From a virus, in the IMG/VR virus record IMGVR_UViG_3300015263_001568, positions 1-64,000 of that record: 64,000 nucleotides of DNA. One strand, written 5' to 3'. The translations under genes were made by a program, and so were the position numbers. Shown in pieces: positions 6,703 to 33,964 of the stretch. Each line of letters opens with the position of its first letter. Within the stretch, counting starts at the first letter, position 1. The notes beneath the pieces were generated by a model. The model had not been told where the DNA came from. It searched no databases and saw only the letters and a program-made list of their open reading frames with translations.

Positions 6703-6709
6703 AACGCTC

Positions 6710-6736: not shown

Positions 6737-6770
6737 TAACGTCCGCGCCCGTTTAGGCTACCTTGAGGGA

Positions 6771-8920: not shown

Positions 8921-8924
8921 GTGC

Positions 8925-10651: not shown

Positions 10652-10669
10652 GCCCGACCCTTATGGAGA

Positions 10670-11077: not shown

Positions 11078-11123
11078 TGTGTTCTCCTTCGTTGAGGCCG
11101 GGCATCCCGGCGAACCCTATAGC

Positions 11124-12038
11124 TTAACCTACGCCCAGCACCTTATCGGCGATTTCACGCCCATGCTGGATACGTTTTTCGTTGAGTTCATGGCTGAAAT
11201 CTGCGCTGTCCCACAGCTCGATTTCCGGCTGAAAAAGTCGCACATTAATGTGGCGTTTTCCGGCCATCGCTGGATCGCCAAGCGCGATGCGCGCATTGAT
11301 GTGCTCCACCATTTTTAGGTCGAAGTACACATCGCGAATGAAAATTTCCGAGATGGCCAAACCAACAATGCGGAGCCCATAATTCACCAGATTTATTTTG
11401 GTACCAAACCAGTTGTCGTGCGGGTCATGCCCTGCAATCTGCCTGGGGTCCCGAGTCACTACAACGTCAATATCGTCACATCCCGCGTCGATGGCGCTCT
11501 TAAACGGTGTGATGGTGCGCACGCCACCGTCAGCCCAGAGGTCACCTTGGATCTCGATGGGCTCATAATCTGGAGGTGCCGCCGCAGACGCGTACACCCA
11601 GCGCCAGAATTCTTCTTTTGGCACTTCAGCGGGGCCGACTTCGCGATACGCACCCGTGCCGTACGACACTACGCCAACCACAAAATTTCTTCCAGAAGCC
11701 ACAATGGCATCATAGTCCAGATGCTTCTGGATCAGCTTTCGTAGCGGTGCAGCATTCCAAAGCCCTGTCTTCCACGGAAGCGAAAGGTACTTTCCAAATG
11801 GCCAGCGTTTGTAAATGTCGGAATTTTTGCGTACGTCGGTATTCCAGACAGCCAGCGCCTTGTCGACACCTTGGCGTAAATTACCAGGAGGACTGGTGGC
11901 TATGATGGAACCAACCAAAGCGCCGGCGCTTACGCCAAAAATGCGACCGTAGTCATAGCCAGCCGCAGCCAAGCGCTCCACCACACCGATATGGAAAGCT
12001 CCACGTGCACCCCCACCGCTGAGTACCAGAGTGCGCAT
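11124..12038 (-). CDS. Patatin-like phospholipase
   Basis: Oxyanion LSGGGARG, nucleophile GVSAG and catalytic DGG motifs, all intact. Confidence 0.92.
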   Translation of the reverse strand: MRTLVLSGGGARGAFHIGVVERLAAAGYDYGRIFGVSAGALVGSIIATSPPGNLRQGVDKALAVWNTDVRKNSDIYKRWPFGKYLSLPWKTGLWNAAPLRKLIQKHLDYDAIVASGRNFVVGVVSYGTGAYREVGPAEVPKEEFWRWVYASAAAPPDYEPIEIQGDLWADGGVRTITPFKSAIDAGCDDIDVVVTRDPRQIAGHDPHDNWFGTKINLVNYGLRIVGLAISEIFIRDVYFDLKMVEHINARIALGDPAMAGKRHINVRLFQPEIELWDSADFSHELNEKRIQHGREIADKVLGVG

Positions 12039-13015
12039 TAAATGTACTCAACTGCGGTTTTGCGGAACAAGAACAGGTAGCCTTTTAGGCTTCCAGACCC
12101 GCCACTTACCTTTACCACTTCAAGGCGCAATTTCCAATTCGGGTGGATAAATTCCGTTCCTTCAGGGTTAAAGGTGAAGCAACCTTGTGGATGCCCTAGA
12201 GCGATATTTTGAATGAATTTTACCTTGATGGTAGGTGCCAGCCCAAACGCAAACAGGTGATAGTGACCAGCGCCAAATGTAGGCGCTGGAGTAATAGCAC
12301 CCGTTTTCCTGTCTACGTTCCAATAGCCATCGACGTTGTCAGCAGGAATGGGTACCGCATTGGAAAGGTTGACGTCAGCAGTTCCGTCACCGCTGGCGGG
12401 AACAAGAATGCTAAACCCACCAGCATCAACAATGTTGCAATTGCCTTGTGTGAGCACATTTGGAACAGTGACGGTCGTACCCAAAACAGCGTAGAAGTGA
12501 AACTTGTCTGCTTGGCTCCAGTTGGAATCCGTATACAGTGCACCAGCTCGCATTTCAATAGGCTCAAAGAACTGAAGATCAACAGAAGCAGTGCCAGCGC
12601 CAGACATGCTGATGGCCAAGTCTTGGCCTTCTCCGATGCCCGCCGGCGCTAGTGCAAGGTTGTCACCAGCTCCCGTCCACATTGTCATGTAGCCGCCGGA
12701 AGGCACAGACGATGGCAAAACAATCTGCCGCCCATCCCAGTAGCGCAGTGTATTATCGACTTCTACTTTGGAGACTTTTTCTGTACCTTTTCCTGTATGC
12801 GCGGCACAGACAGCATCGAGAGCAGTTTCTTCAGGCGTAGACAGCGCCGCCTTCATCCAAATATCAACCACGTCACCAGCTGAATTTATGTGGTCAACAG
12901 CGATGGTGATCGTCGCATTGGCATGGATTTCGTCGGTCAACGCACCGCCGTTGATACTTGTGCCAATCAACCCAGTGAAGTGTGTGGCGATGGAGCGTGT
13001 GTATTTAACAGCCAT
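12038..13015 (-). CDS. Virion structural protein (beta-rich)
   Basis: G/A/T/V-rich; lies in the fibre cluster. Confidence 0.55.
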   Translation of the reverse strand: MAVKYTRSIATHFTGLIGTSINGGALTDEIHANATITIAVDHINSAGDVVDIWMKAALSTPEETALDAVCAAHTGKGTEKVSKVEVDNTLRYWDGRQIVLPSSVPSGGYMTMWTGAGDNLALAPAGIGEGQDLAISMSGAGTASVDLQFFEPIEMRAGALYTDSNWSQADKFHFYAVLGTTVTVPNVLTQGNCNIVDAGGFSILVPASGDGTADVNLSNAVPIPADNVDGYWNVDRKTGAITPAPTFGAGHYHLFAFGLAPTIKVKFIQNIALGHPQGCFTFNPEGTEFIHPNWKLRLEVVKVSGGSGSLKGYLFLFRKTAVEYI

Positions 13016-13025
13016 CAGCTACCCT

Positions 13026-13625
13026 CTAAGCCACACGCCATAGCGATAGGCGAGCATCGTAAATTACCGCACTTCCTGCACCAGAAGATTTACGATAGGA
13101 CATGTCAAGTGTATGAACGCCAGTTGCTAAAGTAATCACGTCATAAGACGTATCAGGGAAAAATACTGTCGTGCTACCTGTAGCGATGGTAGAGGTGTGC
13201 AATGTAGTGGTGCCGTCGACTTGGATTTGCACTTCAGTGATGGTATTTCCCGATGTACCACCAATGAGGCTACCGAAGAAAATCATGTAGTCGCCATCGG
13301 TAATGTCCGCAGTAAGCAACAGCTTTTGCTGGAAGACATCACTAGTCGTTGTCGACATCGAGTCATCTTTTACGGAGTAATATTGAAGTGGAAATGCGCC
13401 GTCAAAGTTCAGTGTTTCGCTGCCAGCTGGAACGATAGCTCCAGCCGGACCATCAATGCGTTCCAACTCACCGGCTGTAAAGGCAGCCGCCAAATCGGCG
13501 CTTTTTGTAAGTGCATCTGTGGTAAAATGGTTGTTTAGATCCATTTCAGATGACGCAGCAACCACTTGCCCCAGATCATCTACGCGAAAATTGCTTGCGA
13601 TGGATCGTCGTACCCAGAAAGCCAT
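13026..13625 (-). CDS. Virion structural/fibre-associated protein
   Basis: Start moved to ATG 13625 (MAFWVRR; TGATG overlap); beta-sandwich-like C-terminus. Confidence 0.55.
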   Translation of the reverse strand: MAFWVRRSIASNFRVDDLGQVVAASSEMDLNNHFTTDALTKSADLAAAFTAGELERIDGPAGAIVPAGSETLNFDGAFPLQYYSVKDDSMSTTTSDVFQQKLLLTADITDGDYMIFFGSLIGGTSGNTITEVQIQVDGTTTLHTSTIATGSTTVFFPDTSYDVITLATGVHTLDMSYRKSSGAGSAVIYDARLSLWRVA

Positions 13626-16432
13626 CAGCTTCTCCACGCAATCCAAAGTGCAACGATGGTTTCCAACGAACCGATTCCAGCAGCATCCGCTTCTACCCAG
13701 ATACTAGAACCTGCCGCTAAGTCAATATCGGTGGTGTTCTCAGAAAATACTGAAGCCGCTAACGCAAAGCTGCGTACGGAAACACCATTAACAAGGATGT
13801 AGAAGATTTTCGCCGGTTCTCCACCAGTGGAACGCGCGGCAATCCGCTTGATAGTTGCGTTGTACGGAATTAGTACGCCAGTTCCTGTACCCGCCGTTGA
13901 AATGCCATAACTTAGCAACGTGTTGCCATCAGCATTGTCACGACCCCAAGCAAGCACATATTCCGAGGTGCTAAGCCATTTTGTGCGGCTGGCGTCGTAC
14001 GCCATCAAGAAGTTCGACCCGGCAGCCGTATTGAACCACAAGTGGCCTGCGGCAGGACTTCCAGGAGCTACAGCGCCAGCCGTAATGGCGTGGACATGAT
14101 CCGCTCGCGCTAGACTGATGGATGTTCCTTCAGCGTTGGCCGACCCAATGGCTACCGGCACCGCCGTGGCAATGTCGTGCTTATGGTCAGAGCGTGCAAC
14201 TTCGTCCACAATTCCAGCACTGGCGGGATTGGTGTCCACATCGGCAGGCGCTGTGAAGGTGAACGGAATTTGTGCAGTAGGAACTTGCCCCAGACCATCT
14301 AGGCTGGCGTATCCACCAACAGCGGCTTTCTCACTACGAAGCTGATATTGAGGATGATCGTCATCAGCCAAGCCGCTCAACAACCCGTGGTCTGTGATTG
14401 CGGTGGATCCGGTAGCTAGCTGACCAATTCTTGGGCGCTGGTCAACGATCGATGCAATATCCGTTGCACCTTGCTCGACTACAATCCCAGCAATACGCAG
14501 TGCGTCATCGTTAAGAATCGCAGCAGACGCCGGATTGTTTCCTTGCTCGGCCGCTACCTGCGTGAGAAAGACCTCTTGCCCATATACGATGTGATATTCT
14601 GTGCCACCAGCATGCGTAGTGAGGTACAGCAGGTCCTTTTTGAATTCACCAGGAGCTAGCGCTGCCAACGTTCCAGAGCCATCATCGTAAAAGTCGGGAT
14701 CTATGGCAGTTTGCCCAACAACGTAGGTCCAGCCGCCCAATCCATCATGATACCAGTACACGAAAGTAATTGCCGCAGTTGCGGAAGCCGTGCGCTTATT
14801 ATCGTAGATGTAATAGGCTCCGGAATCCACGTTCAGCTGCAATGAGGGGGACCCAGCTTTGCTTGCAGCCGTACCAGCTACGCTGATTGGACCGATGACC
14901 TCTTGGGAATATACATGGTTATGTGGAATATGCTGAGTAATATCCACATAGTGCTCTGAAATGAAAACTATACTTGCGGCTGCGGTTACAACTTCACCCA
15001 GAACGATAGCGTCCTCGTGGTTAACCGTGCCTTCTGGTGCACTGAGAACGGTGCCATTGAAATCAACGTAAACTTCTAAGTCATCTTCATTCGCAGGAAG
15101 CGAAATGGTATCACCGGGCCACTGCACAAACACGATGCCAGTGCCGGTGTTGACAAATCCAGTACCTGCCGAAACGCTCAAATCCAGTCCGCCAGCACGA
15201 TTTAGAAGGCCGCCAGAGACTCTACCTGTGTTCGCCGTGGTGCGTGTTAGCGTTGCTTGTGGAACCGACTGCGATTGTGTTCCTAGCCACAGTTCGCCGA
15301 ATACAACCATGCCTTCTTCTGATGGCGTCAGATCAGTAAATGCAGCAGCAAAAGTGGCGCCTGCGACAACGCTGACTTTGTTCTTATCCAAGGTACCAGT
15401 GAACAGAACATCGGCGGTAGCAGAGAGGATTTCCAAATCGGTTGTGAATCCGGGTCGCACCAAGGCATTTTGGATTCGCAAAACAGTGGCTCCAGCAGCT
15501 CCAACATGAATTGCGGTAGACCCGCTTGTGAATTCACAAGTCGATATAGTTATATCGCAGCCGTTAGTTGCGCTTAAGGCATACGTCATACCTGTGGCGC
15601 CAAAGCGTGAGTCGTTTACCGTGACAACAACGTTGGCCCCATCAGCTACTATACCGTTGGACAATGTAGCTGGAATGGGAGAGTACAACACGCATGTGGA
15701 TACGCTGACAATGCCAAATCCACTTACCTGTAGAAATGTTCCGAGCGAAGAGCCAACGTATTCAAACCCGCACAAATCCATGTTGACCACGCTTATCGCC
15801 AGCGCAGGATCAACAAGGAATCCGATGTCACCGCGTTGTACTGTTACACGAGATAGCGTAAATGGGGCAGCGACTGGAGTGTCGTGGTGAACAGAAGCAA
15901 ACCCTATTCCTGTTGGGCCTAATAGACCAACATTTGACAAGTGGCTAAATGGTGCACCGGTGATAAAGTGCGCATTCAAATCAGTGGTACGCAACACCAC
16001 TGCTGATGAAGACAATCCTGATTCCGCTTCACCGACGACAGACACGTACGATTTCATCGTAAATGGGTCTTCGTCATACACACCAGGGAAAACCTGCACT
16101 ACGTATGGTTTAGCGGCAGAAGCGTCAACGATGAAGTCGACAGCATCCTTTACACTGGTGAAGTCTGCGTTGGCTTTTCCTACCGTGATGGTCTCAGCAA
16201 TATTTCCAACCGTTGTCGGATGCCATGCCGCCCCATCCCACTGATAGATCGTGTGCTCTACAGTGTGCCAGAAAATGTCACCAGTGTTTGGCGCTCCTGG
16301 AAGTGCCGCACCACTGGGAATAATCAGTGAATCTACGACCGATAGATTTTCGGTCAGCAGGCGGTCTGGCGAGCCTATTTCTTGATAGCCACGACCAGAG
16401 TCATCTATCGATGTCGCTCTACGATCTGCCAT
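13625..16432 (-). CDS. Tail fibre/tailspike with pectin-lyase-like beta-helix
   Basis: ITVGK..ADFTSVKDAV..PYVVQVFPGVYDE beta-helix cap, DHGLLSGLADDDHPQY motif, ARSDHKH/ARADHVH repeats. Confidence 0.75.
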   Translation of the reverse strand: MADRRATSIDDSGRGYQEIGSPDRLLTENLSVVDSLIIPSGAALPGAPNTGDIFWHTVEHTIYQWDGAAWHPTTVGNIAETITVGKANADFTSVKDAVDFIVDASAAKPYVVQVFPGVYDEDPFTMKSYVSVVGEAESGLSSSAVVLRTTDLNAHFITGAPFSHLSNVGLLGPTGIGFASVHHDTPVAAPFTLSRVTVQRGDIGFLVDPALAISVVNMDLCGFEYVGSSLGTFLQVSGFGIVSVSTCVLYSPIPATLSNGIVADGANVVVTVNDSRFGATGMTYALSATNGCDITISTCEFTSGSTAIHVGAAGATVLRIQNALVRPGFTTDLEILSATADVLFTGTLDKNKVSVVAGATFAAAFTDLTPSEEGMVVFGELWLGTQSQSVPQATLTRTTANTGRVSGGLLNRAGGLDLSVSAGTGFVNTGTGIVFVQWPGDTISLPANEDDLEVYVDFNGTVLSAPEGTVNHEDAIVLGEVVTAAASIVFISEHYVDITQHIPHNHVYSQEVIGPISVAGTAASKAGSPSLQLNVDSGAYYIYDNKRTASATAAITFVYWYHDGLGGWTYVVGQTAIDPDFYDDGSGTLAALAPGEFKKDLLYLTTHAGGTEYHIVYGQEVFLTQVAAEQGNNPASAAILNDDALRIAGIVVEQGATDIASIVDQRPRIGQLATGSTAITDHGLLSGLADDDHPQYQLRSEKAAVGGYASLDGLGQVPTAQIPFTFTAPADVDTNPASAGIVDEVARSDHKHDIATAVPVAIGSANAEGTSISLARADHVHAITAGAVAPGSPAAGHLWFNTAAGSNFLMAYDASRTKWLSTSEYVLAWGRDNADGNTLLSYGISTAGTGTGVLIPYNATIKRIAARSTGGEPAKIFYILVNGVSVRSFALAASVFSENTTDIDLAAGSSIWVEADAAGIGSLETIVALWIAWRS

Positions 16433-17038
16433 TTACGGCCCTGATACCTTGATTGGCGGAGCGGGATGCAGAATGATAGTCACCCGACCGGTAGTAGCGT
16501 ACAACGTCGCATTTTCAACTTCGCCGACTAGTGTGTAGTAATGGCCGGACCCACTTATTGGGCGGGTATTCCGGAATTTTCCCGGAGTAATCCAGCTAAG
16601 CACTGCTGGATCTCCTGCAACTACACCCAGCCCAGCGTCAAACAATACTTCGACAATTCCGCCGACTACAATTTGACCCGCCGTTCCGGCATAGACACCA
16701 GCAAACGTTGACGTCAAAAAAGACCCTGCCAAATGGTCGGCATTGGTCGGCATAAATGTGCTGTTTCCAGACACGTAAGCTGCATAGCCAGCCGTCATCG
16801 CAGTCGTGTCTTTGCCGATGATGATGACCTGCTCAAGGTCATTGAACTGCGTCAAGTCGTCGAGGTTAATGACGACAATGGTACCAGACGCAATACGGCT
16901 GTACACTACCTCGGTATTGATCACATCGTCGTAGGCGACGAACTGGAAGACTTTATCCTCGCGCGGCTGAAGCGTGCCGTTCACTGGACTGCCTAGCCGC
17001 AAGACGTACGTCGTCAGATTTCGGATAAGTACAGCCAT
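16433..17038 (-). CDS. Virion decoration/fibre-like protein
   Basis: Gly/Val-rich beta pattern resembling capsid cement/fibre domains. Confidence 0.45.
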   Translation of the reverse strand: MAVLIRNLTTYVLRLGSPVNGTLQPREDKVFQFVAYDDVINTEVVYSRIASGTIVVINLDDLTQFNDLEQVIIIGKDTTAMTAGYAAYVSGNSTFMPTNADHLAGSFLTSTFAGVYAGTAGQIVVGGIVEVLFDAGLGVVAGDPAVLSWITPGKFRNTRPISGSGHYYTLVGEVENATLYATTGRVTIILHPAPPIKVSGP

Positions 17039-17475
17039 TAGTATAGTGTCGAGGGCACCTGGACCACGTAGGTCGGTGGCTCGGGTGTAGTGTCACCGAC
17101 GCCAACCTCGTCGCCGCTCATAGCCTTCATCTTGGTGACGTTCAGGCGGCACAGCTCGGTGTTGGCGTCGTAGAGGTCCGGATCCTCCCCCGGATTGGCC
17201 CGGAAATAGCCCTTCGCTGCGTCGGAACCAGGGCGGACTACCTGGCATGACCCATAGCCTGACGAAGGCAGCAGAGCGGCTCCTGTGGGCCATGAGGAGA
17301 AGAACACTTCCATGGCGGCGTTTAGCGCACCTTGTAGGTCTGACGCCCACACTAGTTGGCTAAACCAAAAGGTCCGGCTGCGGGCAATCTTGCCCTCGTA
17401 CTGAGGTTGGCCGGTGAAGCCTACCTGCCAGGCAGCGAGCCCTTCCTGGGGCCATGTGCGAACCCCGTGTGTCAT
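17038..17475 (-). CDS. Hypothetical protein
   Basis: Coupled by overlaps on both sides. Confidence 0.65.
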   Translation of the reverse strand: MTHGVRTWPQEGLAAWQVGFTGQPQYEGKIARSRTFWFSQLVWASDLQGALNAAMEVFFSSWPTGAALLPSSGYGSCQVVRPGSDAAKGYFRANPGEDPDLYDANTELCRLNVTKMKAMSGDEVGVGDTTPEPPTYVVQVPSTLY

Positions 17476-20121: not shown

Positions 20122-20820
20122 TCACTCGACTTCCCAAGAATCGGAACCGTCATCGGTATCGGCTGACGCAAAGTCTAGATCGTCATCGTCTTCCATTGCG
20201 TGCAGCTTTAGCTGAGAAGACTTCTTGGACTTCTTCTTGTCCTTCTTGCTCTTCTTCGCCTTCTTGTCCTTCTTCGGGCGCCCACGCTTCTTGGGAGCCT
20301 CCTCCGTTTCGGCCTCGACGTCCTTGTCCTTCTTCGGGCGCCCGCGCTTCTTAGCAGGAGGAGCCTCGTCAGCCTCGGCGTCCTTGTTCTTCTTCGGACG
20401 CCCACGCTTCTTGGGAGCCTCGTCAGCCTCGGCGTCCTTGTTCTTCTTCGGGCGCCCGCGCTTCTTGGGAGCCTCTTCCGTGGTCTCAGACTTCCTCGGG
20501 CGCCCGCGCTTCTTGGGAGCCTCTTCGGCCGCAGCAGCAGCCTTCGGAGGACGTCCACGGCGCTTCTGTGGCGCTGGCGCTGTATCGGCACTCTCCGTCG
20601 CTGGAGCGGCAAGTGGCTCCACCTTGTCGATGCTCTGCACATCTGCGGTAGGAATGTACCGCGTGATGCGCTGATGCAGTGCTGGGCGGCCTCGCCCCTG
20701 CTTCACTACAACATCGAATTGGACCTGCACGAAGCTGCTATCCATTCCGAGAAGCAAGCCATCGACGTTTGCCTTCTTACCTTTGAGGGTTACGCTTACC
20801 TGTTCGGCCTTCTTTGGCAT
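20122..20820 (-). CDS. HMGA-like AT-hook DNA-binding protein with Sm-like N-domain
   Basis: 7 RGRP cores (mostly KKRGRPKK), acidic C-tail EDDDDLDFASADTDDGSDSWEVE, AGGAGG RBS. Confidence 0.85.
   Translation of the reverse strand: MPKKAEQVSVTLKGKKANVDGLLLGMDSSFVQVQFDVVVKQGRGRPALHQRITRYIPTADVQSIDKVEPLAAPATESADTAPAPQKRRGRPPKAAAAAEEAPKKRGRPRKSETTEEAPKKRGRPKKNKDAEADEAPKKRGRPKKNKDAEADEAPPAKKRGRPKKDKDVEAETEEAPKKRGRPKKDKKAKKSKKDKKKSKKSSQLKLHAMEDDDDLDFASADTDDGSDSWEVE
20265..20565 (-). repeat. Tandem coding repeats of the AT-hook unit
   Basis: Repeated cttcttcgg[ga]cgccc[ag]cgcttctt units on the plus strand. Confidence 0.85.
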
Positions 20821-20850
20821 TTTGCCTCCTATCGTCTGCCGACTGTCTGT

Positions 20851-22446
20851 CTATGTGAGGTCTTCACGTAGTCGAATGAATCGGTTAAATCGTCCAATCG
20901 CAACTTCTGTCTTATCACCTTGAACGCGAAAGTCAACCTTCATCCCAACGATGTCTTTGCGTTTTTGCCAGTACGTCATACGCTGGTCGTTATCCGACGC
21001 ATGAGCAAACCCCCCACCAACATGAAATTGGCGCCCTTTGTACTTCACCACAAAGTAGCCGAGGCGCTCACCATAACGGTACGAGCAATGCCCCTTCCGA
21101 TGCGTAGAAATCCGGCGGTCCGTCGCATCACTAATAGCTTCACGTAGTTCGGCGCTAAGTGCCCGCGGCCGATCTACAGAACAATGCAAGTACGAACCAT
21201 CGTCTTCGACAGATCCCCACTCCTCCATGATGGCACGTACCTTCTTGACGTCTGCCTTGGAGGCACCCGCGTGCTTGCCCTTACCCGCCACCGCATCAAC
21301 GATGGTACCGGTCACATCATCCTCTGGCTTCAACTTCAGGCACAGGTCGGTACGCTTGAACACATGTGGTGCCTTGGGGTCTTTGACCATGATGCCTTCA
21401 AACGATTGGTCGAGGCACCAATCGTAGTAGGCTTGCATCTCGTCCACGTCCAACACCATCCGATGCGCCAGAATCCACACATTGCTGGAAAATTTGGCAA
21501 CGCGCTTGGCTTTTTGCCAATTGGCTACCGTTGACAATAGCGCCCTTTTACGACGGCTCCACGCCACGTCAAACGATCCGCGCATGTAGTTTGGCAGCCA
21601 GGACCAATCGAATAGCACGCAGCGCACTTCCTTCAAAAAGTCGCGCTTGTTGAAGTTCTTTGTGCTGCGGATCAAACTTGACGTACGGTTCCAGCTTCCA
21701 TCCACTGCCAGAAATTCACCGTCCAAAAAGACGGGTTTGTCTTCGCGCGTCTTGGTGATGCGGTTAAGCGCGCGAGCGATATCACAGAGCTGCGAAGAAA
21801 ATTCCGCTACCTGCTCGATGTGCTCACGGCGCTTATTTCCGCGCGTGTAAATGTGAATGCGCTGCTCAGCCGGAAAGGCAAATACCAATGCGCGCTCGCC
21901 ATCCAGCTTGGGCTCCACCGCCAAGGGAAAACGTGGGCGCTTGCTGCCCTTGTAGACGTCTTCGTACTTCTTTGCCAGCAAGCAGCCGTTAAAGCTCCAT
22001 CCGCGGTCTTTTTCCTCGGTAGAACGCCAGAAGTCCTTTCCCCAAATCTTGGTGATGGTCTTTTTGCTTACACCGATACGTAAATCGTGGTTGAGGATGC
22101 GGCGAAACCACTTCGCGAGATGCTTGGGAACCGACACCAGTAGCCGGTCTGTAGCCATGGAGGCTGTCTGCCCAGTCATTTCGCGTGACGTCAAAGCCTT
22201 TGCCAAGCGCACGAACTTGTCCCACGCTTCCCGCTCATCGGGAACCGTTACCGCCGGGACAAGGTTGGCAGTAGGATGCACATGGTACATGTCGCCACCG
22301 AGTGCCATCAAGACAATGGTACGCAGCAACTGGTTGTCTTTTTCCTGCTCCAAGACAGTCTCTTTGGAGAGGCGACTAGACATGTTCTCCATGTGATCGA
22401 GAGCCTTAATAGCGGCCTCGATTTCTGCCTTCGTGACGCGCGGCAT
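20851..22446 (-). CDS. lig: ATP-dependent DNA ligase
   Basis: Motif I EPKLDGER, motif III FLDGE, IIIa LFD, IV EGIMVK, V KLKP. Confidence 0.93.
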   Translation of the reverse strand: MPRVTKAEIEAAIKALDHMENMSSRLSKETVLEQEKDNQLLRTIVLMALGGDMYHVHPTANLVPAVTVPDEREAWDKFVRLAKALTSREMTGQTASMATDRLLVSVPKHLAKWFRRILNHDLRIGVSKKTITKIWGKDFWRSTEEKDRGWSFNGCLLAKKYEDVYKGSKRPRFPLAVEPKLDGERALVFAFPAEQRIHIYTRGNKRREHIEQVAEFSSQLCDIARALNRITKTREDKPVFLDGEFLAVDGSWNRTSSLIRSTKNFNKRDFLKEVRCVLFDWSWLPNYMRGSFDVAWSRRKRALLSTVANWQKAKRVAKFSSNVWILAHRMVLDVDEMQAYYDWCLDQSFEGIMVKDPKAPHVFKRTDLCLKLKPEDDVTGTIVDAVAGKGKHAGASKADVKKVRAIMEEWGSVEDDGSYLHCSVDRPRALSAELREAISDATDRRISTHRKGHCSYRYGERLGYFVVKYKGRQFHVGGGFAHASDNDQRMTYWQKRKDIVGMKVDFRVQGDKTEVAIGRFNRFIRLREDLT

Positions 22447-23600
22447 TATTCTGCCTTGGTGGTATGGTGGTGCACGGCCTTTTTGACGATGGCCGGCTTG
22501 TACAGCTCACGGAAGTCCTTGAGAGGATACGTCAACGTGATGCCCGCGTGCACGCCTTCGATGCAAATCAGCGAAACCTGCCCTGCGGCATTTTTCGCCA
22601 CGAAGCCCTTGCATGCCATTCCGGTAGCACGGTCCGTCCACGTCACGGTGTCGCCCAGCGCGAACTTGAACTTTTCCTTGTCCTTCGTGCTGCCACGTCG
22701 GCGCATGACGACGCTGTAGTCGCTGAAGAACCTACGCGCGAGGTCGATCTGCTCAGCGTTGGTAAAGCCATTCAGAATATCCTGAACGCTTTGCAGTGCG
22801 TCATCGATCTTCAGCGCCGGATAGGACCTCTGGCACTTTTCCTCGAACCACTTCAACACGCGCTCTTGTCCCCGCAAGTAGTTGTAATGAACTTCCGAAG
22901 CGCGCTTGAGAAGCTCAATCGTGGGCTCGTCCATCCCCATAGCCTCTGGCACCACGTCGGCCATCTCATGGCTAATGAAGAATGACTGGCAGCTCCACTT
23001 GTCCTCACGCATCGGCTCGCCGCTGACCGTGTTCTTCTCGCTGCACACCGCTCCATGAGGGCCTACATACTTCCACACTGCGCACTGTCGGCATTCCAAG
23101 GGGATGACATCGCCGACCACATAGTCCTTACCAGCATGCTGGTAGCCCTTCTGCACTGTGTAGGTAGACGGTAACTGTTTCGGCTTCGGTCCACGCTTTG
23201 CTTGCTCCTTGGAAGACGTTGCAGCCTTTGCAGGCGCAGCAGACTTTACAGGAGCTGCCTTCGCTCCCTTTTTTGGCGGAGCGGGCTCGTCATCCTCGTC
23301 TTCGTCTTCATACTCGAAATCATCATCCTCCTCGTCGCCATCCTCCTCTTCATCGAAGTCCTCGTCGTCTTCGTCCTCGTCGTCTTCGTCGTCCTCCTCT
23401 TCGTCCTCCTCCTCTCCATCCTCGCTATCTTCCCCGTCCTCGCTATCTTCCCCGTCCTCATCCTCATCGTCGAACTCTTCGTCGTCCTCGTCTTCCCCTT
23501 CCTCGTCCTCGAACTCTTCGTCGTCCTCGGTAATATCCTCGTCTTCGTCGTCCAGTGCCTCAACCGCGGCTTCTAGCTTTTTCCGGCTATCCTTAGACAT
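22446..23600 (-). CDS. Protein with about 90-aa D/E N-terminal tract, Cys cluster and C-terminal KOW/SH3-like domain
   Basis: AGGAGG RBS; CRQC..C..C; KFALGDTVTW motif. Confidence 0.75.
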   Translation of the reverse strand: MSKDSRKKLEAAVEALDDEDEDITEDDEEFEDEEGEDEDDEEFDDEDEDGEDSEDGEDSEDGEEEDEEEDDEDDEDEDDEDFDEEEDGDEEDDDFEYEDEDEDDEPAPPKKGAKAAPVKSAAPAKAATSSKEQAKRGPKPKQLPSTYTVQKGYQHAGKDYVVGDVIPLECRQCAVWKYVGPHGAVCSEKNTVSGEPMREDKWSCQSFFISHEMADVVPEAMGMDEPTIELLKRASEVHYNYLRGQERVLKWFEEKCQRSYPALKIDDALQSVQDILNGFTNAEQIDLARRFFSDYSVVMRRRGSTKDKEKFKFALGDTVTWTDRATGMACKGFVAKNAAGQVSLICIEGVHAGITLTYPLKDFRELYKPAIVKKAVHHHTTKAE

Positions 23601-24964: not shown

Positions 24965-27394
24965 TTAGCTTCGATCGTAGCGTGCTGCAATTTGTTGATA
25001 GCGCGCAGGGATGCCGCCTCTATACAGCGTTGACTCATTATTTTCGCGAACAGCCCACCACACTTGGTCCCAAACGGGATCTGCCAAAACTTCAGGCCGA
25101 TGGCTTACGACGAACACCGAGCCGAACTTTTGGCGCAGCATGCCTAGGATGCTGATCAAGCCAGCCGTCCCCTGCGGGTCGAGGCTTCCAAATGGTTCGT
25201 CTACAATGAGCACGTTTGTCGATGACTCTGTGTAGCGCTCTTTAAGGTCTCGCATACCAAACAGCATTGCCAATCCACTTTTGTGCTGCTCGCCTCCAGA
25301 TAGCAAGCTGCTACGCGTGGCAATATTACCATCTCGGCGACGGAGTTGGAATTGTATCGCATCCATGCTCTCTGACAACTCCAAGTCCACCGTGCGTCGG
25401 GGCCAGAGCACACTACTATACACCGGTACAGTAGTCTCAGTCGCGTCCTGCAAGATGGCGCGAAATCGATCTTGCTTGAGACCTTGGCTGCCGAATGCTT
25501 TCTTGAGGGCCTCCAGGCAGCGCTTGTTGCGCAGGATGCCAGTACCCTTAGCCAACCCCTTACGGACTTGAGCAAGCCGTGCCTGGAGCGTCTCCGATGC
25601 GCTGAGGCGCTCTTCCAGGATGGCTATCTGCCGACTCAGGTCTTCGGTCTGCGCAGTAGCGGAGCTGACGATCTTCTCGGCTCTGGCTAGCTGCTCCGCA
25701 GTCTGCTCGCGATTGCCTTTGGGAAGATCATCCATCTGGTCAATCCGAGTGCGCACCCGAGCAATAGCCTTCGCTCGTCGGCGCAGAGCGTTCGCCTTTT
25801 TGTGCAACCCGGCGATCTGCTCTTCTGGAACCGTACCGCGTGCATCTATTTCTTGTATCTGAATCTCAAGATCGTGCTTTTGCTGCGAAATTTCTTTTTC
25901 AGCCACCAGTTCTTTTTCCCGCTTGGTGGCTGTACGGATATCGCGCTGCACCTCTACCGGTGTGCGGGTGGTATCGATGGACTTGAGCCGTGCAGCTAAC
26001 TGCTCATACTTTTCTGAAGTTTCTAGCGCCGACTTGGCAGCGAATATTTCCTTCTTGACTTTACGCAGCTGCTGTCGGGCACCGCGCAGCTTTTCCCGCA
26101 GTGCTTCTGGATCGCTTTTTGTGTCGAGAGGGCGGTGGCACGTTGGGCAAACGCTCTTGTCTAAATGGCGTACTGTTACCTCTATCTCACGCTCTAGCGC
26201 CCCTTCTTCACGCATATACGCTTCTACTTGCTTGCGCAGCGGCTCAACATTTTCAGGCGGCTTGTCGAGTCCGGCCAGCTCTTCCGTGATTTCGTATCGC
26301 TGCTCAGCCTGTGGTAGCTCGGTATTTTGTAGGTAGCGCAGCTGTGACTTTACTTCGCTCAAGTCGGTGTCGATGTCCGCTAAGGCACGTCCAGACAGCT
26401 TGGACAGCTGGCGCTCAAGAATGTCTCTTCGTTGCGCTGCTTCACGTTGACGTTGCGCTGTATGATATGCATCCGACGCATCGGTGGCTTGTTGGTCGAT
26501 GGATTCGACTTCGGCGTCATCGATATCCGACGGTTTGTCGTACCATTTCCCGAGGTCTGCATCGTCCCAGATCACTCTGACCTGCTCAATAAGTTGCTTG
26601 CGCTGGTCGAGCTGGTTCAAGCGATCTCGTAGCTCCCGTGATTCCTGTACAGCCGCGTTGGACTCTGTGCGCAGCTCTTTTAGCTGGCGCTTGCGCTTCT
26701 TGAGTCTGGAACGCATTTTGTCGACATCACCAATATCGCCAGCGCGCGCTTCGAGGCTACCCAACTCGCGTTCCAAAGCCTCGATGTCGACCAAGCTAGT
26801 GGCCACGGATTTTTCACGGTCTCGGAAAATGGCGTACATGTTGTCGAAGACATCAAGCCCAAACATCTCTGTCAGGCGTTTGTAGCGATCGCTTCGCTTA
26901 CCATGCAGTAGCACATGGCTTAGCTTCTGCGGCAGGTACACCAAGTTGAAAAAGCTTGTGTCATCCAGACCTAGGTGAGCCTCACGGATCCATTTATGCG
27001 GCGCACGCGCAGCTCTGCTCGGAATGATGTTTTGGCCTGTGGACGTGTCCACAACACGGATCGCATCACCGTGAAGCGTGTGCTTACGATATTGTCGAAT
27101 TTCAAACGGGCGGCCATCTACGCGGTATTTTAGCACCGCCTCGAAGTCTTTTCCCGCAAGGTCGTTGACAACGTCGTTCTTGGAAAATTCCTGGCCCGAG
27201 CCTCGACCTCCGTAGCCTACCTGGATACTGGAAAATATTTCCCACAGTGAGGTTTTTCCACAAGCCAGGAAGCCACCATCGTCTACGTTCAATCCGCGCA
27301 CCAACACCAACCCTTGACCATCCAACGGTAAGTCGCAGTGGCGGTAGACGTAGCCGTTTTTGAACGTCAGGTGATCGTACTGAATGTGCGGCAT
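24965..27394 (-). CDS. sbcC: SbcC/Rad50-like SMC ATPase
   Basis: Walker A ACGKTS, Zn-hook CPTC in the coiled coil, signature LSGGE, Walker B/D-loop IVDEPFGSLD, H-loop VSH. Confidence 0.93.
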   Translation of the reverse strand: MPHIQYDHLTFKNGYVYRHCDLPLDGQGLVLVRGLNVDDGGFLACGKTSLWEIFSSIQVGYGGRGSGQEFSKNDVVNDLAGKDFEAVLKYRVDGRPFEIRQYRKHTLHGDAIRVVDTSTGQNIIPSRAARAPHKWIREAHLGLDDTSFFNLVYLPQKLSHVLLHGKRSDRYKRLTEMFGLDVFDNMYAIFRDREKSVATSLVDIEALERELGSLEARAGDIGDVDKMRSRLKKRKRQLKELRTESNAAVQESRELRDRLNQLDQRKQLIEQVRVIWDDADLGKWYDKPSDIDDAEVESIDQQATDASDAYHTAQRQREAAQRRDILERQLSKLSGRALADIDTDLSEVKSQLRYLQNTELPQAEQRYEITEELAGLDKPPENVEPLRKQVEAYMREEGALEREIEVTVRHLDKSVCPTCHRPLDTKSDPEALREKLRGARQQLRKVKKEIFAAKSALETSEKYEQLAARLKSIDTTRTPVEVQRDIRTATKREKELVAEKEISQQKHDLEIQIQEIDARGTVPEEQIAGLHKKANALRRRAKAIARVRTRIDQMDDLPKGNREQTAEQLARAEKIVSSATAQTEDLSRQIAILEERLSASETLQARLAQVRKGLAKGTGILRNKRCLEALKKAFGSQGLKQDRFRAILQDATETTVPVYSSVLWPRRTVDLELSESMDAIQFQLRRRDGNIATRSSLLSGGEQHKSGLAMLFGMRDLKERYTESSTNVLIVDEPFGSLDPQGTAGLISILGMLRQKFGSVFVVSHRPEVLADPVWDQVWWAVRENNESTLYRGGIPARYQQIAARYDRS

Positions 27395-28144: not shown

Positions 28145-29335
28145 CTACTCTCCTTTACGCCGACGAGGTTTCTCTGACCAGGAAGACGTCACCGCAATGG
28201 CGCGCAACGTAGCCATATCGAGTAAGCCATGCTGGCTAGCGTACGATCGAGAGCGCTCTTGCACTCCGAGGAAAATGTCCAGCAGCTTGGCAATGTCTTG
28301 TATCTTCGCTACGTCGTGGTGCCCGTTTGGTAAACTAACACCTTTAAGATACCACGAATTTTGACTTATAGGAAGACGGCTTGGCTCCACCCAAGTGTAG
28401 AGAATTTGCTGAATGGTGGTGATCACACGGTTCAGAAAGAATACTAGGTCTACGGAGTCCGCCATGGCCTTTTGTACAGCAGCGAGCGTCTGCTCATATC
28501 GACCTTGGAACAACCCATCTACATACTGCTGCACGATGACGTAGCTGGCATAAGACTCCGACTCCTCCAGCACCTTCGGCAGCAGCGTTTCTAGGTCGAC
28601 TTTTCCATCAGCAACTTCCACAGCGTTTCTGAGCTGCGATAGCAAGGTCAGCGCATCTCTTGGATGACCGGCTGAAATTTCCGCGATCTTCTTCAGCCCT
28701 GTCTTCAGCTCTGCTTTCTTGAGCCCACTAGTGTGCAGTTCTTCTGCTTTGGCCACCCGCGCGAGCAGGCGATAGCACTCTGGCACCGTGACTGGGTTTA
28801 GATGGTAGCGTTGGCAACGGCTCAGAATGGTGCGCGGCACCAATTCCGGATTGGTGGTGCACAGAATAAAGCGCGTTCTCGGTGGTGGTTCCTCAAATAT
28901 CTTGAGCGCTGCTTGAAACGCGTCTTTGGTGATCTGGTGAGCTTCATCGAAGATGTACACCCGAAAGCGGCCAAAGCGCGGGGCGTACGCGATGTGCTGT
29001 TTCAGATCGCGAATATCACCGATGCCGCGGTTCGAGGCTGCGTTGATTTCCACAACGTCTGGGTGCTCCCCTTCACCACGGATGGCTTTCAACATGATTT
29101 TGCAGCTTGGGCATTCACCACAAGGCTCTTCCGCTGACTTTCGGCACACCAGATAGCGAGCGATCAAACGCGAGAAGCTGGTCTTGCCGGAGGAGTATGG
29201 GCCACTGAACAGAATCGTTGGAGCGATCCGCCCAGACTTGAGCATGCCACGGATATTATCCACGACATGTTCTTGGCCGATGACTTCCTCTAGCGTGGTT
29301 GGTCGATACTTGTTTGCGAGGCTTTTCGATTCCAT
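28145..29335 (-). CDS. dnaX: DNA polymerase III clamp loader gamma/tau
   Basis: LANKYRP..EVIGQ, Walker A GPYSSGKTS, Zn module PCGECPSC, DEAH and SRC motifs. Start set at MESKS. Confidence 0.93.
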   Translation of the reverse strand: MESKSLANKYRPTTLEEVIGQEHVVDNIRGMLKSGRIAPTILFSGPYSSGKTSFSRLIARYLVCRKSAEEPCGECPSCKIMLKAIRGEGEHPDVVEINAASNRGIGDIRDLKQHIAYAPRFGRFRVYIFDEAHQITKDAFQAALKIFEEPPPRTRFILCTTNPELVPRTILSRCQRYHLNPVTVPECYRLLARVAKAEELHTSGLKKAELKTGLKKIAEISAGHPRDALTLLSQLRNAVEVADGKVDLETLLPKVLEESESYASYVIVQQYVDGLFQGRYEQTLAAVQKAMADSVDLVFFLNRVITTIQQILYTWVEPSRLPISQNSWYLKGVSLPNGHHDVAKIQDIAKLLDIFLGVQERSRSYASQHGLLDMATLRAIAVTSSWSEKPRRRKGE

Positions 29336-29339
29336 TTGT

Positions 29340-30401
29340 CTAGTCATCCTCGTAGGGGTTGCTGAAGGAAACACCTAGTTCCTTTGCCGCCGCGTCGACG
29401 AACTTGAACGCGTGTGGCAAATACTCCTCCGGCAGACCAGCTTGCAGCAGTGTGTTGTCCAACCCGTCGAAAATGCCATGCACTCGGCGCGCATTCTGTG
29501 GAAGCGCTCGCGCCGGCATCTCTTCTCCAGGTTCAACATTCATCGGTAAAGGCATGGTGGACGTGGGCATCGCGTGGAGCTTCACAAAAGCTTCAGCCGC
29601 GCTAGGCCACACGTCAGGAACTTCATGTAGTTCAATCAGCTTGGTAGAACGTATTGGGACGTATTTCGGATTCGTTGGATCGGCGGTATCGACGACCAAA
29701 ACGCCTTTGTCGAGGTCTTCTCCAAATCTCGTTTGGTGCGGTGCGCCGCAGTACCACGCATTGGGCAAAATCGACTGCCGTTTATGGATGTCTCCAAGTG
29801 CCCAATAAGTAACGCCGTCGATCGGTTCCAAGTGCACTTGCGCATTCGACGTCACCATGAGCCCAGTATCCGTTTTGCTACCCACCACATTTTCATGCAG
29901 CACGACAATGATTGGCTCACGATGACGCTGCGCATACCGCACCATCGAGTGCACCATCAAGTAGACCTCTGCATCCTTCCACCCGTGACTGGGATCTCTA
30001 GCGGGAAACAGAAGCAGCTGACATCCATGCATCGACTTTATCAATGGCAAGCCGTCATGAATGAAATGCTTCCCCAAAATGTCGGTCATCCGGCTCAAGT
30101 AGCTAAGCGACGTATCCCCAATTTGACTTGAACGCACATCATGGTTCCCGCTGATCATCACGATGGGAACCGGCGACGACGCCAGCCAGTCCGTGAGGAC
30201 TTGTCGTTCTTGATGCAGGATGTCGCGGCGTTCCCAAATGTCACCAGCAACGATGGTAAAGTCGACGCGGTGCTTTCTAGCCGCCTTATGTATGCCCTCC
30301 AACGTCTGCACCATCCGACGCAAATACGCGGCCTGACTATGATCAGAGAACCGCCGCAGCGCATTGATGTGCAAATCGGACGTATGCAGAAACCTAGGCA
30401 T
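29340..30401 (-). CDS. sbcD: SbcD/Mre11-like metallophosphoesterase nuclease
   Basis: HTSDLH, AGD, GNHD and LGDIH motifs. Confidence 0.9.
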   Translation of the reverse strand: MPRFLHTSDLHINALRRFSDHSQAAYLRRMVQTLEGIHKAARKHRVDFTIVAGDIWERRDILHQERQVLTDWLASSPVPIVMISGNHDVRSSQIGDTSLSYLSRMTDILGKHFIHDGLPLIKSMHGCQLLLFPARDPSHGWKDAEVYLMVHSMVRYAQRHREPIIVVLHENVVGSKTDTGLMVTSNAQVHLEPIDGVTYWALGDIHKRQSILPNAWYCGAPHQTRFGEDLDKGVLVVDTADPTNPKYVPIRSTKLIELHEVPDVWPSAAEAFVKLHAMPTSTMPLPMNVEPGEEMPARALPQNARRVHGIFDGLDNTLLQAGLPEEYLPHAFKFVDAAAKELGVSFSNPYEDD

Positions 30402-31729: not shown

Positions 31730-32697
31730 TAAGACCTATGCAAAATAGCTCCTACTGGAAGCTTGGTGCTCTTCCAGCCTCGGTGCTTTTGTAGTTCCTC
31801 AACGTAGACTACCGCGGCCCCCTGTAGGCCACCGAGCTGCTGGAGCACCGCAGCAGCACGATCACGCGATGGTCGTGCCCAGAATACCGTATTCGAGCCG
31901 TCGTAGAAACTCGTGACTTTTTCAATGGGCGAATGGTCGATTTGCATCGTGAGCAGCCGCCCATGTACATCGCCCAAGCGACTATCGATCAAGTCAAGCT
32001 GCTGGTAGAAAGCTGCTGCTTGACGCCGATCAAACGCCTCTTCTGGATGCCGAGGTTGCAGCAAGCCTGTACGTCGCCGGAGACCGGCTACAAGCTGTCG
32101 CCGTGCTTCCAGGTAGAAGGCCCATATGGTTGCCGACAAAGGCTTCCTATGGGCCTCTACAGGCGTCCAGGTAGCAAGCCAGACATCCTGCGCAGCGACC
32201 GGCATCAGCCGACTCAGGGCAAACAAGCGCTGCCGTTCAACGCCCGTGCGCAGTGCATGAAAGAGGCCGAAGGCTAAACTATTGATATCATTGAAAACTT
32301 CAATGGACGAAGGCGGAAACCCAAGCCAAGGCGGACTGCCGTTACCGAGAAGGTCTACGCGCGTGCGAAATGCCTTCCAAAATGGCTCGACCACTTCTTC
32401 GACCGCACCTTTCGTGGTGAGCCACTTTGACACACTTTCTGCCCAACGAGTAGCCTTTGCCGCAGCGAGCACGAGGACGTTTCGCTGGGCATCCTGTAAA
32501 CGCTGTAGGAAGCTCTTGAGGTCACTCAAGGGTTTCGCTACCTGCCAGGTACCACTGGGGCCTTCCTTGGCGCCTCGTGGCGTCCAGGAGGCATCCCAAG
32601 ACTGTGCTGCATGGATAGTGCAGTGTGGCCCGCCGTTGCGCTTGCCGTGGATGACGCACACAGTGTCCGCAAGGCTATTCGTCATCGTCATCGGCAT
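31729..32697 (-). CDS. Hypothetical protein
   Basis: 322 aa, coupled to recA. Confidence 0.65.
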   Translation of the reverse strand: MPMTMTNSLADTVCVIHGKRNGGPHCTIHAAQSWDASWTPRGAKEGPSGTWQVAKPLSDLKSFLQRLQDAQRNVLVLAAAKATRWAESVSKWLTTKGAVEEVVEPFWKAFRTRVDLLGNGSPPWLGFPPSSIEVFNDINSLAFGLFHALRTGVERQRLFALSRLMPVAAQDVWLATWTPVEAHRKPLSATIWAFYLEARRQLVAGLRRRTGLLQPRHPEEAFDRRQAAAFYQQLDLIDSRLGDVHGRLLTMQIDHSPIEKVTSFYDGSNTVFWARPSRDRAAAVLQQLGGLQGAAVVYVEELQKHRGWKSTKLPVGAILHRS

Positions 32698-33964
32698 AAT
32701 AGCGGGACCGCGGAGCTGCGTCTGTCTTCGATTTGGTCTTCTTGGCTTTCTTTGATTTTTTGGTAACAGCTGTCGTTTCTATGACAATTGGAGTCTTCGT
32801 ACGCGGCTTCTTGGTGGTAGCCGTCGCAACCACATCCTCTCCATAGTCCTTGTCGAAGTTGTACGTACGATTACCAGAAATCTCAAAAAAGCGGTCGTAG
32901 TTTTCAGGCTGCTGCAACATCAGAAAGAACTTCTGTCGATTGCGCGGACTGTAGCTCATCTTACGAAACGATGGCAGGTCCCACTTCTTGTTATCGAGGC
33001 CCTTGAGGTTGATCGAACGCCTTCCAGCCGCCGTCTTCAAAAATCCCAAGGCTGCCAAGAATTGCTGCGTGTCGTACGCCTTATCCACGCCATGGCCTGG
33101 GATGATCTGCAAATCAACGGTGAGCCAACTAGGAAAGCACTTGTTCTTTGTGGTGCGCACCGTCGCCGGAATAATTTGGACACCCATACTATCCCGGCTC
33201 TCTTTTCCAAGTGTCTTGTCACTGCGTCGACTTACGCGCAGCTTGTAGTCCGGATAAAATCGCAGCGCTTTTCCGCCAGTTTCTTGGTCAGGGGCACCAT
33301 AGGCACCAATGTTGCTCCGCACTTGATTTGTGCCGACCAACACGCCGCCTTTTTTGCGCAGGCGTACCTTAATTTGCTTCAGGTACTGACTATGCATCCT
33401 AGGCTCCGGTGTGATGCCACCACCCGTGCCTGTTTCCTCATCCACGTTTTCACTGCTCAATGCCGCAAAACTGTCGACAAAAAATGCGATAGTTGGAGGA
33501 CCCGACGTCACATCCGGCATCCGATTAAGCGTGCGCATGATGAGGCGATATGTGTCTTCTCCCGTGTCAGGCTGTGCGTAGTAAAAAGACGCGTACTTCT
33601 GCTTACCAACGCTTAGCTTGTGCTCAATCCGTAGTCCTTGCCGCTGCATGAACACAGGATCGGCACCAGTTTCTGGATCGAGGAACACTACAGGAATGCC
33701 TTGTAGCTGTGCCGACACGGCAATTTCTTGTAGTAAGGTAGATTTACCAACGTGTTCTCCGCCAAAGATGGTGCAGAACCGACCACGCTGAAGTCCGCCA
33801 CCGAAAATCAAATCCAGCGATAGGACACCTGTAGAAAGGCAGTCGAGGACACGCTGACCTTTCATCAGATTGATTGGGTCTAATCCATCAATGGAGGCAA
33901 ACGCTTCGGCAACAGCCTGAGAAGGATGTACCAGGTTGTATTCGCGCTTTTTCTTTTTCGCCAT
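32675..33964 (-). CDS. recA: RecA/UvsX recombinase
   Basis: STGVLSLDLIFGGG, Walker A GGEHVGKST, QPDTGE, VDS, NQVR, GGKALRFY and KNK motifs. Confidence 0.95.
   Translation of the reverse strand: MAKKKKREYNLVHPSQAVAEAFASIDGLDPINLMKGQRVLDCLSTGVLSLDLIFGGGLQRGRFCTIFGGEHVGKSTLLQEIAVSAQLQGIPVVFLDPETGADPVFMQRQGLRIEHKLSVGKQKYASFYYAQPDTGEDTYRLIMRTLNRMPDVTSGPPTIAFFVDSFAALSSENVDEETGTGGGITPEPRMHSQYLKQIKVRLRKKGGVLVGTNQVRSNIGAYGAPDQETGGKALRFYPDYKLRVSRRSDKTLGKESRDSMGVQIIPATVRTTKNKCFPSWLTVDLQIIPGHGVDKAYDTQQFLAALGFLKTAAGRRSINLKGLDNKKWDLPSFRKMSYSPRNRQKFFLMLQQPENYDRFFEISGNRTYNFDKDYGEDVVATATTKKPRTKTPIVIETTAVTKKSKKAKKTKSKTDAAPRSRYYADDDDE

Follow-up and report, generated by a model that had tools for sequence, protein, structure and literature searches.

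The AT-hook gene and its product

The stretch analysed here (64,000 nucleotides, hereafter the window) corresponds to positions 1 to 64,000 of the 80,099-bp IMG/VR virus record IMGVR_UViG_3300015263_001568 (G000), which CheckV rates as 23% complete. The gene under study lies on its minus strand at 20122..20820. It is a real gene, formed by one complete open reading frame (ORF) of 232 amino acids (aa) with an ATG start, which is preceded at a distance of 4 nt by a strong Shine-Dalgarno sequence, AGGAGG, and separated by 30 nt from the stop codon of a DNA ligase gene. Its product, P0001, carries an N-terminal domain (N-domain) followed by AT-hooks, a Lys-rich stretch and an acidic tail (Table 1). 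AT-hook proteins have been well studied in eukaryotes, and what is understood of them in bacteria comes largely from CarD. To our knowledge those of phages are essentially uncharacterised.

The original prediction described seven RGRP cores with acidic linkers, a Lys-rich stretch and an acidic C-terminal tail, and all of these are present in P0001. The central G of the seven cores occupies aa 44, 89, 106, 122, 140, 160 and 180. Six cores belong to canonical AT-hooks located between aa 86 and 184 (KRRGRPPK, KKRGRPRK and four copies of KKRGRPKK). They have the RGRP core with the basic flanks of the AT-hook family, as six copies of K[KR]RGRP[KPR]K, and score well above the cut-off of the Pfam AT_hook profile (PF02178; E 1.4e-11, 43.3 bits for a cut-off of 17.4). 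The seventh core, QGRGRPAL (aa 41-48), is not an ordinary hook because it is included in the β3-β4 loop of the folded N-domain, where relatives exhibit GRGRG or RGRA instead. The original description of the sequence is correct but gave no strand.

The spacers between the hooks are acidic and rich in Ala, Glu and Asp, so that the hook array as a whole (aa 85-186) contains 39 K/R and 20 D/E. The Lys-rich stretch has 11 K/R in 20 residues while the tail has 12 D/E in 26 residues, zero K/R, and includes the motifs DLDF and SWEVE. The net charge of the protein is strongly basic (+19). The DNA that encodes the hooks forms a tandem array with a 60-bp period (4.9 copies, 80% match), indicating that the repetition of the hooks results from duplication and not from chance.

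Predicted fold of the N-terminal domain

The N-domain was modelled with AlphaFold2 (AF2) as a single chain (residues 1-71), the input being an alignment of 26 family sequences. The model has five strands (6-12, 18-26, 30-39, 48-57 and 61-66; pLDDT 83.9, pTM 0.62), in agreement with the Sm-like β pattern that had been read in the first ~65 residues, and no helix ahead of strand 1. In the AF2 model of the homologue encoded by a related phage genome, G001 (see below), the same domain reaches a pLDDT of 92-97 and the remainder of the protein is disordered.

Structure prediction and a Foldseek search had been proposed along with that pattern. They yield a small β-barrel whose best neighbours are Hfq, Sm and LSm proteins. 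Against PDB, the first Foldseek match of the P0001 model is an Hfq with a long inserted L4 loop (6xyj, E 8e-4, TM 0.79). The same chain also ranks first for the G001 homologue (E 4e-3), and many Hfq, LSm and Gemin6 chains follow it in the lists. VIA, which is independent of Foldseek, retrieves Hfq, Sm and LSm chains with Z values of 5 to 7.1, several Hfq chains scoring 6-7 with an rmsd of ~2 Å over 50-54 residues; in its calibration, however, a Z below 8 may mean merely a common arrangement. Its top match is a cytochrome domain (Z 8.0), and further small barrels appear among its matches (BirA C-domain, designed SH3-like barrels, RimP, YaeO).

The five-stranded bent antiparallel sheet typical of Sm, LSm and Hfq proteins is therefore found in two independent models (Z 5-7). 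Their N-terminal helix is absent from both, and the structural alignments begin at about Hfq residue 14-19, which we take to be past this helix. Neither Pfam (E<=0.01), where P0001 matched only AT_hook and, below threshold, CDC27, nor a comparison of the family profile with PDB sequences (zero matches at E<=10) revealed an LSM or Hfq signal. The tip peptide discussed below did not match PDB sequences either. The best score in the ESM Atlas was 0.88, for unnamed clusters, and the BFVD matches were all weak and to phage proteins that are uncharacterised, some few being named Sm- or Hfq-like. The models thus support an Sm-like small β-barrel as the fold class of the N-domain, whereas membership of the Sm/Hfq family is not supported since the helix is absent, the sequence carries no Sm/Hfq signal and the structural scores are middling. 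The Sm/Hfq-like scaffold of the original prediction holds in this sense for the fold neighbours but not for the helix or the sequence.

These results bear on whether P0001 forms a ring. As in the original prediction, the N-domain could assemble into a hexamer or heptamer displaying 36-42 hooks per particle, which would bridge or condense AT-rich DNA as a hub of the nucleoid or replication factory, a role compatible with that of the adaptor proposed below. The best fold matches are indeed ring-forming Hfq and Sm proteins, and a hook number that is both high and evolutionarily labile (0-6 per member) would be expected of an avidity device. Other products of the gene block, namely a histone-fold candidate of the DUF1931 type and two proteins bearing long acidic tracts, would also be consistent with a chromatin-like system. 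However, the missing helix, Z values that may reflect no more than a shared barrel arrangement and the lack of an Sm or Hfq sequence signal make a ring rather unlikely. LSm domains without an N-terminal helix (EDC3, Scd6/LSm14) are not known to form rings, and such helix-less chains are among the VIA matches.

The most conserved feature of the N-domain is the basic K-x-G-R-G-R-G/P loop between strands 3 and 4, in which G44 is invariant and R45 nearly invariant across the family. The family differs here from Hfq, Sm and LSm proteins: it shares their five-stranded bent sheet, as predicted for P0001, but conserves the β3-β4 (L4) GRGRG loop and not the pore loops. The GRGRP/GRGRG loop recalls H-NS and Lsr2, where a folded domain displays a Q/RGR 'AT-hook-like' loop that reads the AT-rich minor groove (PMC6936261). 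These proteins have other folds, and a contact of the P0001-family loop with DNA is proposed only by analogy.

A small family with a variable number of AT-hooks

A profile of the N-domain, searched against 1.84 billion cluster representatives (E<=1e-3), matched 18 proteins only, one of which is a spurious repeat protein. The true family members are 54-246 aa long and are not fused to other folds. Searches with the whole protein mostly retrieve unrelated proteins which have only the hook repeats in common, and a subset that shares the N-terminal ~70 aa as well. The matches outside the family align through the hook repeats alone, and a scan with the whole-family alignment (A1) also gave mostly hook-only matches. 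The metagenome matches show hook arrays joined to a wide variety of phage N-domains. When residues 1-72 were used alone, a word-based search returned only the query, and a scan of viral contigs with P0015 gave nothing confirmed. Neither the GenBank phage collection (DNA or protein, for the region or P0001) nor PHROG (for P0001) provided a match.

The members share one plan, an N-domain (consensus …VTLVGvrGaKLPVxEc.L…Y.VQa..KtGRGRG…RTY.iPK..V.YYY.eEe), then zero to six hooks and a short C-terminal peptide, and the family profile identifies one copy of the gene per genome. P0001 is a divergent member: its N-domain is 34-40% identical to those of its relatives and it carries the most hooks. The domain combination is new, as is the family, which is small and restricted to a single jumbo-phage lineage. 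Nothing about the hooks is out of the ordinary; the conserved context and the recombinase-type tail described below were unexpected.

The number of hooks is labile. P0104 (157 aa) has the same N-domain and tip as the G001 protein (207 aa), with two hooks in the former and four in the latter. The G001 protein is encoded at 171946-172569 of G001 (locus L012, 7607-8230), and this pair indicates a variation in repeat copy number. In the metagenome protein P0115 (208 aa) the N-domain and a …GASLFDDSI tip are retained and the AT-hooks are missing. A weak HTH_IclR-type match, below the Pfam cut-off (E 1.1e-3), is observed at their position. P0115 looks like a natural module swap, and the replacement of the hooks therefore suggests that the protein is modular with an apparently exchangeable DNA-binding middle part. 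G001 also encodes, at 246264-246605 (+), a 113-aa protein with a single RRRGRPKK hook near an acidic C-terminus ending in …EEDLF.

P0001 had been considered as HMGA-like, and the succession of hooks, Lys-rich stretch and acidic tail does fit this description. HMGA1 and HMGA2 likewise carry several K/R-flanked R-G-R-P hooks and an acidic C-terminal tail, and the association of three or more hooks with such a tail is found in P0001 (six hooks; 12 D/E in the 26 tail residues). However, HMGA proteins are ~100 aa long with three hooks and no folded domain, whereas P0001 combines six hooks with a 70-aa barrel. No homology to HMGA was found beyond the hooks; the N-domain alone identifies only its own family. 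The resemblance is an analogy and not a family relationship.

A closer prokaryotic parallel is CarD of Myxococcus xanthus, in which a small β-barrel domain that interacts with RNA polymerase is combined with an acidic region and with hooks of the HMGA type (PMC2919716, PMC4374960). By analogy, the P0001 barrel could bind RNA polymerase or a phage sigma factor, one of which is encoded in the window (Table 1), with the hooks anchoring the protein at AT-rich promoters. A CarD protein (P0101) is among the hook-driven matches. However, the acidic region and the hooks occur in another order in CarD, its N-domain is unrelated, and its context is transcription and not replication and recombination as here. 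Alignment of the N-domain profile with P0101 by hhalign gave a probability of 0.85% with only 8 hook residues aligned, and homology of the N-domain to CarD was rejected on this basis. Pfam CarD_TRCF (PF02559) is not matched by P0001, and CarD/TRCF-RID chains are not among the fold matches listed. Such a transcription adaptor would also leave the recombinase-type tail unexplained, and we regard it as very unlikely.

Genomic context

The window is gene-for-gene collinear with G001, a complete phage genome of 349,793 bp with direct terminal repeats, and its source is an uncultivated jumbo phage of this ~350 kb lineage. The relatives of its terminase, which are less than 30% identical, belong to jumbo phages of Achromobacter, Pseudomonas, Erwinia and others. 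The AT-hook gene directly follows the ligase gene in six of the six records (L002, L008, L010, L011, L012 from G001 and L123 from G007) that comprise all phage records with a ligase ~41% identical to that of the window, plus G007. In these six it is directly followed by the same gene, of 286-295 aa. It also follows the ligase gene in L122 (G006), where the contig ends inside the gene. Upstream of the ligase, the relatives carry an acidic protein and a ~270-aa gene. No family member was found at more distant ligase loci (~30% identity). The gene is a core gene of the ~350 kb phage lineage, fixed beside the DNA ligase gene, and sits inside a recombination, repair and replication block (Table 1). 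This fixed position argues for a function in DNA metabolism over one in host takeover.

In the window the gene also borders structural genes (408-17475) and, given its net charge of +19, P0001 could be a packaged protein that neutralises or organises the large genome in the capsid or is injected along with it. However, this border is not conserved, since the structural genes of G001 are located elsewhere while the block from ligase to AT-hook gene is intact, and P0001 matches no virion-protein family in PHROG. A packaged condensing protein is extremely improbable.

Table 1. Features of the AT-hook gene and of its surroundings in the window
Feature	Position	Strand	Remarks
Complete ORF, P0001	20122..20820	-	Sm-like barrel, six AT-hooks, Lys-rich stretch, acidic tail
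Shine-Dalgarno	20825..20830	-	AGGAGG
N-domain, aa 1-70	20611..20820	-	five-stranded Sm/Hfq-like small β-barrel predicted from AF2, fold searches and family profile
GRGRP, aa 42-46	20683..20697	-	structured basic β3-β4 loop ('seventh hook')
Ala/Pro-rich linker, aa 71-84	20569..20610	-	homologous region disordered in AF2 model of G001 homologue
Array of six AT-hooks	20263..20568	-	RGRP at aa 88-91, 105-108, 121-124, 139-142, 159-162, 179-182
Lys-rich stretch, aa 187-206	20203..20262	-	
Acidic/aromatic C-terminal tail, aa 207-232	20125..20202	-	…EDDDDLDFASADTDDGSDSWEVE
ATP-dependent DNA ligase	20851..22446	-	always immediately upstream in relatives
Syntenic acidic/Cys-rich protein	22446..23600	-	
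Downstream neighbour, 286 aa	19247..20107	-	weak zinc-ribbon and HTH matches only
SbcC-like protein	24965-27394		
DnaX-like clamp loader	28145-29374	-	TIGR02397, 265 bits, above cut-off
SbcD-type phosphoesterase	29340-30401		
RecA/UvsX-like recombinase	32675..33964	-	
Sigma factor	36218-37594		
DNA helicase	56220-57710		PHROG 16
DnaB-like helicase	58099-59688		
FEN-type 5'-3' exonuclease	59914-60753		
Processivity-factor (clamp) candidate, 395 aa	60754-61941	+	PHROG 947 only
UvrD helicase	62456-64000		3' end open

The C-terminal peptide and the recombinase

The family is also characterised by its C-terminal tip. In 14 of the 24 members the last residue is F or W, preceded by an LF[DE][DE]x-type motif. 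The F-ending tips include …AASLFDESF, …ANALFEEDF, …ASIFDEDF and …GSLFDDTF. Other members have tips such as …SLFTDFGS or …SLFDDSI, and a small group ends with an aromatic residue and an acidic run (…DFQLDPDDE, …QFKLDPEDD, …KWQLDEDEE). In P0001, the tail given in Table 1 stands where the relatives have their LF[DE][DE]xF-COOH tip.

A similar peptide terminates the RecA/UvsX-like recombinase of the same phages (Table 2). An identical FDESF is observed on both proteins in three records, two of which are near-identical. Among the 447 gene ends of G001, two fit F[DEST][DE][DEST][FWYIL] (0.027 expected), and these are the recombinase and the AT-hook protein. The recombinase clade has a tail of the form K-rich…EDHxxL[DS]FD[DE]xF, with variants, and the DLDF of P0001 fits the LDFD core of these tails. 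In the window itself both proteins end with an aromatic residue and an acidic run (…RYYADDDDE and …DLDF…SWEVE), the recombinase also presenting a Lys-rich segment ahead of its aromatic/acidic C-terminus in parallel with the AT-hook protein. In the more distant phage G008, a protein with a Cys motif and an acidic tail, encoded beside the recombinase, contains four DL[ST]FDDDDD repeats in this tail.

Table 2. C-terminal ends of the recombinase and of the AT-hook protein
Record	Recombinase	AT-hook protein
G001	…SVSFDESF	…ASLFDESF
G004/G005	…DLSFDESF	…ASLFDESF
G006	tail as in G004/G005	gene cut by contig end
G007	…AFDEEMMFDE	…ALFEDDF
Window	…RYYADDDDE	…DDDDLDFASADTDDGSDSWEVE

The terminal peptides of two unrelated DNA-binding proteins therefore change together between lineages, as would be expected of a motif through which both dock on the same partner. 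This suggests the existence of a peptide 'address code' in the replisome of a large phage. Neither the position after the ligase gene nor the peptide shared with the recombinase had been noted in the original prediction, and together they point to replication and recombination rather than to competition with host silencers. An internal LFDESF is also present in G001 within an apparently folded ligase-like protein (231186-231797; KLDGSN motif recognised by eye). It was taken as a coincidence.

This organisation recalls that of single-stranded DNA-binding proteins (SSB) and of T7 gp2.5, in which a small β-barrel and an extended disordered linker precede an acidic tip whose last residue is aromatic, as in the relatives with …LFDESF-COOH. 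The SSB-Ct tip of bacteria (DDDIPF) docks partner proteins (PMC8509808). The acidic tail of T7 gp2.5 binds the polymerase, and its terminal Phe is needed for the interplay with this enzyme (PMC12339929, its references 41, 42). However, the barrel of P0001 is not an OB fold and its linker is a predicted DNA binder itself, for duplex rather than single-stranded DNA. P0001 ends with …DSWEVE, its aromatic residue being four from the end, whereas SSB tips end on the aromatic. The SSB signal in its sequence consists of one sub-threshold match to a plasmid SSB model (20.5 bits for a cut-off of 265).

By eye, the tips …ASSLFTDFGS and …AASLFDESF of the family and …DDLDFASA… of the window also resemble the clamp-binding peptides of T4, which are short, acidic and hydrophobic and lie on flexible parts of replication proteins, EKASLDFLFG at the C-terminus of gp43 and EPEGLDFLFD in a loop of the ligase (PMC6212786). 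In contrast to T4, the clamp candidate of the phage is known from a PHROG match only (no PDB or NCBIfam sequence match was found for it), the loader is DnaX-like and the polymerase does not carry the motif.

Proposed function

We favour, and give about an even chance to, the view that P0001 is a minor-groove DNA-binding adaptor of the replication and recombination machinery with an SSB-like docking tail. It is probably neither a true HMGA nor an Hfq protein. Three modules would contribute to this function. The Sm/Hfq-like barrel, through its basic loop, may provide a second nucleic-acid contact or a surface for self-association. The disordered array of six hooks would clamp the protein with high avidity on the minor groove of AT-rich double-stranded DNA (dsDNA), as expected by analogy with other AT-hooks. 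The acidic, aromatic tail that follows the Lys-rich segment would be a docking peptide for a partner also used by the recombinase, a role proposed by analogy with the SSB and gp2.5 tails. Candidate partners would be the phage clamp, the clamp loader, the polymerase and the acidic-tailed candidate SSB described below. P0001 might then mark or organise duplex DNA, bring the partner to it or be brought there by the partner. Alternatively, the tail may fold onto the basic segments and so modulate binding, as in HMGA2, whose acidic tail interacts with the hooks (PMC4482583).

Several observations weigh against the adaptor. The tail encoded in the window is divergent and ends in E, so that the argument from the tip draws mainly on the relatives. 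The lineages in which both proteins are present are few, four being independent (G001, G004/5/6, G007 and the window). The C-terminus of the family-A polymerase of G001 does not have the tip motif, nor does the end of any further protein of G001 or G000. AF2 models the tip as a short helix (pLDDT ~65) that has no confident placement and is not docked on the N-domain, and docking of the tip on its own barrel is thus not supported. An acidic tail located after a basic disordered region can also act as a regulator within the same molecule, as in HMGA2 (PMC4482583). Finally the DNA target is ambiguous, as A/T tracts are depleted in the 80-kb fragment and enriched in G001. In the former, 25 tracts of at least 8 A/T were observed for ~74 in a first-order Markov simulation, and 1 tract of at least 10 for ~15 simulated. 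In G001, 382 runs of 8 or more were observed for ~268 simulated.

In another view, the hooks would occupy AT-rich host or phage DNA to which silencers of the H-NS, MvaT or Lsr2 type would bind, or would compact and inactivate the host nucleoid. The depletion of long A/T tracts in the phage fragment could indicate that host DNA is the target. Competition would be chemically plausible as the AT-rich minor groove is also what H-NS and Lsr2 recognise (PMC6936261). However, the enrichment of such tracts in the sister genome G001, the location of the gene in the replication/recombination block and not among early or host-takeover genes, and the tail in common with the recombinase all argue against this, leaving host takeover or anti-silencing with a very low probability.

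A more extended form of the adaptor can be envisaged, in which P0001 would be the dsDNA counterpart of SSB within a phage chromatin or replication-factory system. The barrel would self-assemble, the hook-bearing linker would coat AT-rich duplex DNA and the acidic/aromatic tip would recruit a hub common to the recombinase and the acidic-tailed candidate SSB. The neighbouring histone-fold protein of the DUF1931 type would belong to the same system, together with the two acidic-tract proteins, and a C-terminal 'address' peptide covarying between lineages would wire DNA-binding proteins to a single partner. We consider this scheme to be distinctly unlikely.

For the adaptor itself, the family offers a defined and testable case, since each of its three modules can be exchanged or removed on its own. 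The putative 'address code' of the recombinase and the AT-hook protein would be comparable to the SSB-Ct interactome. If confirmed, the shared tail would identify the hub protein of the phage replisome and open a way to study the organisation of very large phage genomes while they replicate and recombine.

Other genes of the region

Several neighbouring products exhibit unusual compositions. The syntenic protein encoded upstream of the ligase gene (Table 1) is 384 aa long. Its first ~105 residues are almost wholly D/E and are followed by a Cys-rich body. No family match was found in Pfam or PHROG. It could assist the basic hook protein as its counter-ion or chaperone.

The second protein with a long acidic tract is encoded at 34398-36146 (-), two genes upstream of the recombinase, from which it is separated by a 127-aa ORF. 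It carries a conserved Cys motif (…C.CPLCADF…) and has counterparts in G001 (158786-160078) and L116 (314-1396). Its tail is lineage-specific: ~170 aa of nearly pure D/E ending in a basic KKRSGKGRGR in the window, and EGWG[DE][DE]S repeats ending in DDPDGW in G001. Neither Pfam, PHROG nor NCBIfam gave a match, and its assignment as a gp32-like SSB, from its position and Cys motif, is only a guess.

The product of 30401-30775 (-) has 124 aa with a Lys-rich N-terminal part, and its last ~55 aa match DUF1931-type histone-fold structures (9f2c, E 8.4e-5; 9qt0, E 2e-3). A longer in-frame ORF (30401-31318) includes an HNH nuclease domain upstream (Pfam HNH, E 7.5e-8). The G001 counterpart is a stand-alone gene of 91 aa.

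No polymerase was found in the 80-kb record. In G001, a family-A DNA polymerase is encoded at 60096-63086 (-) by an ORF of 996 aa (Pfam DNA_pol_A, E 2e-72). Its N-terminus is extended by a long segment, and its C-terminal end is rich in Cys (…CRACGKEREETSYPKNKRCEECGS…).

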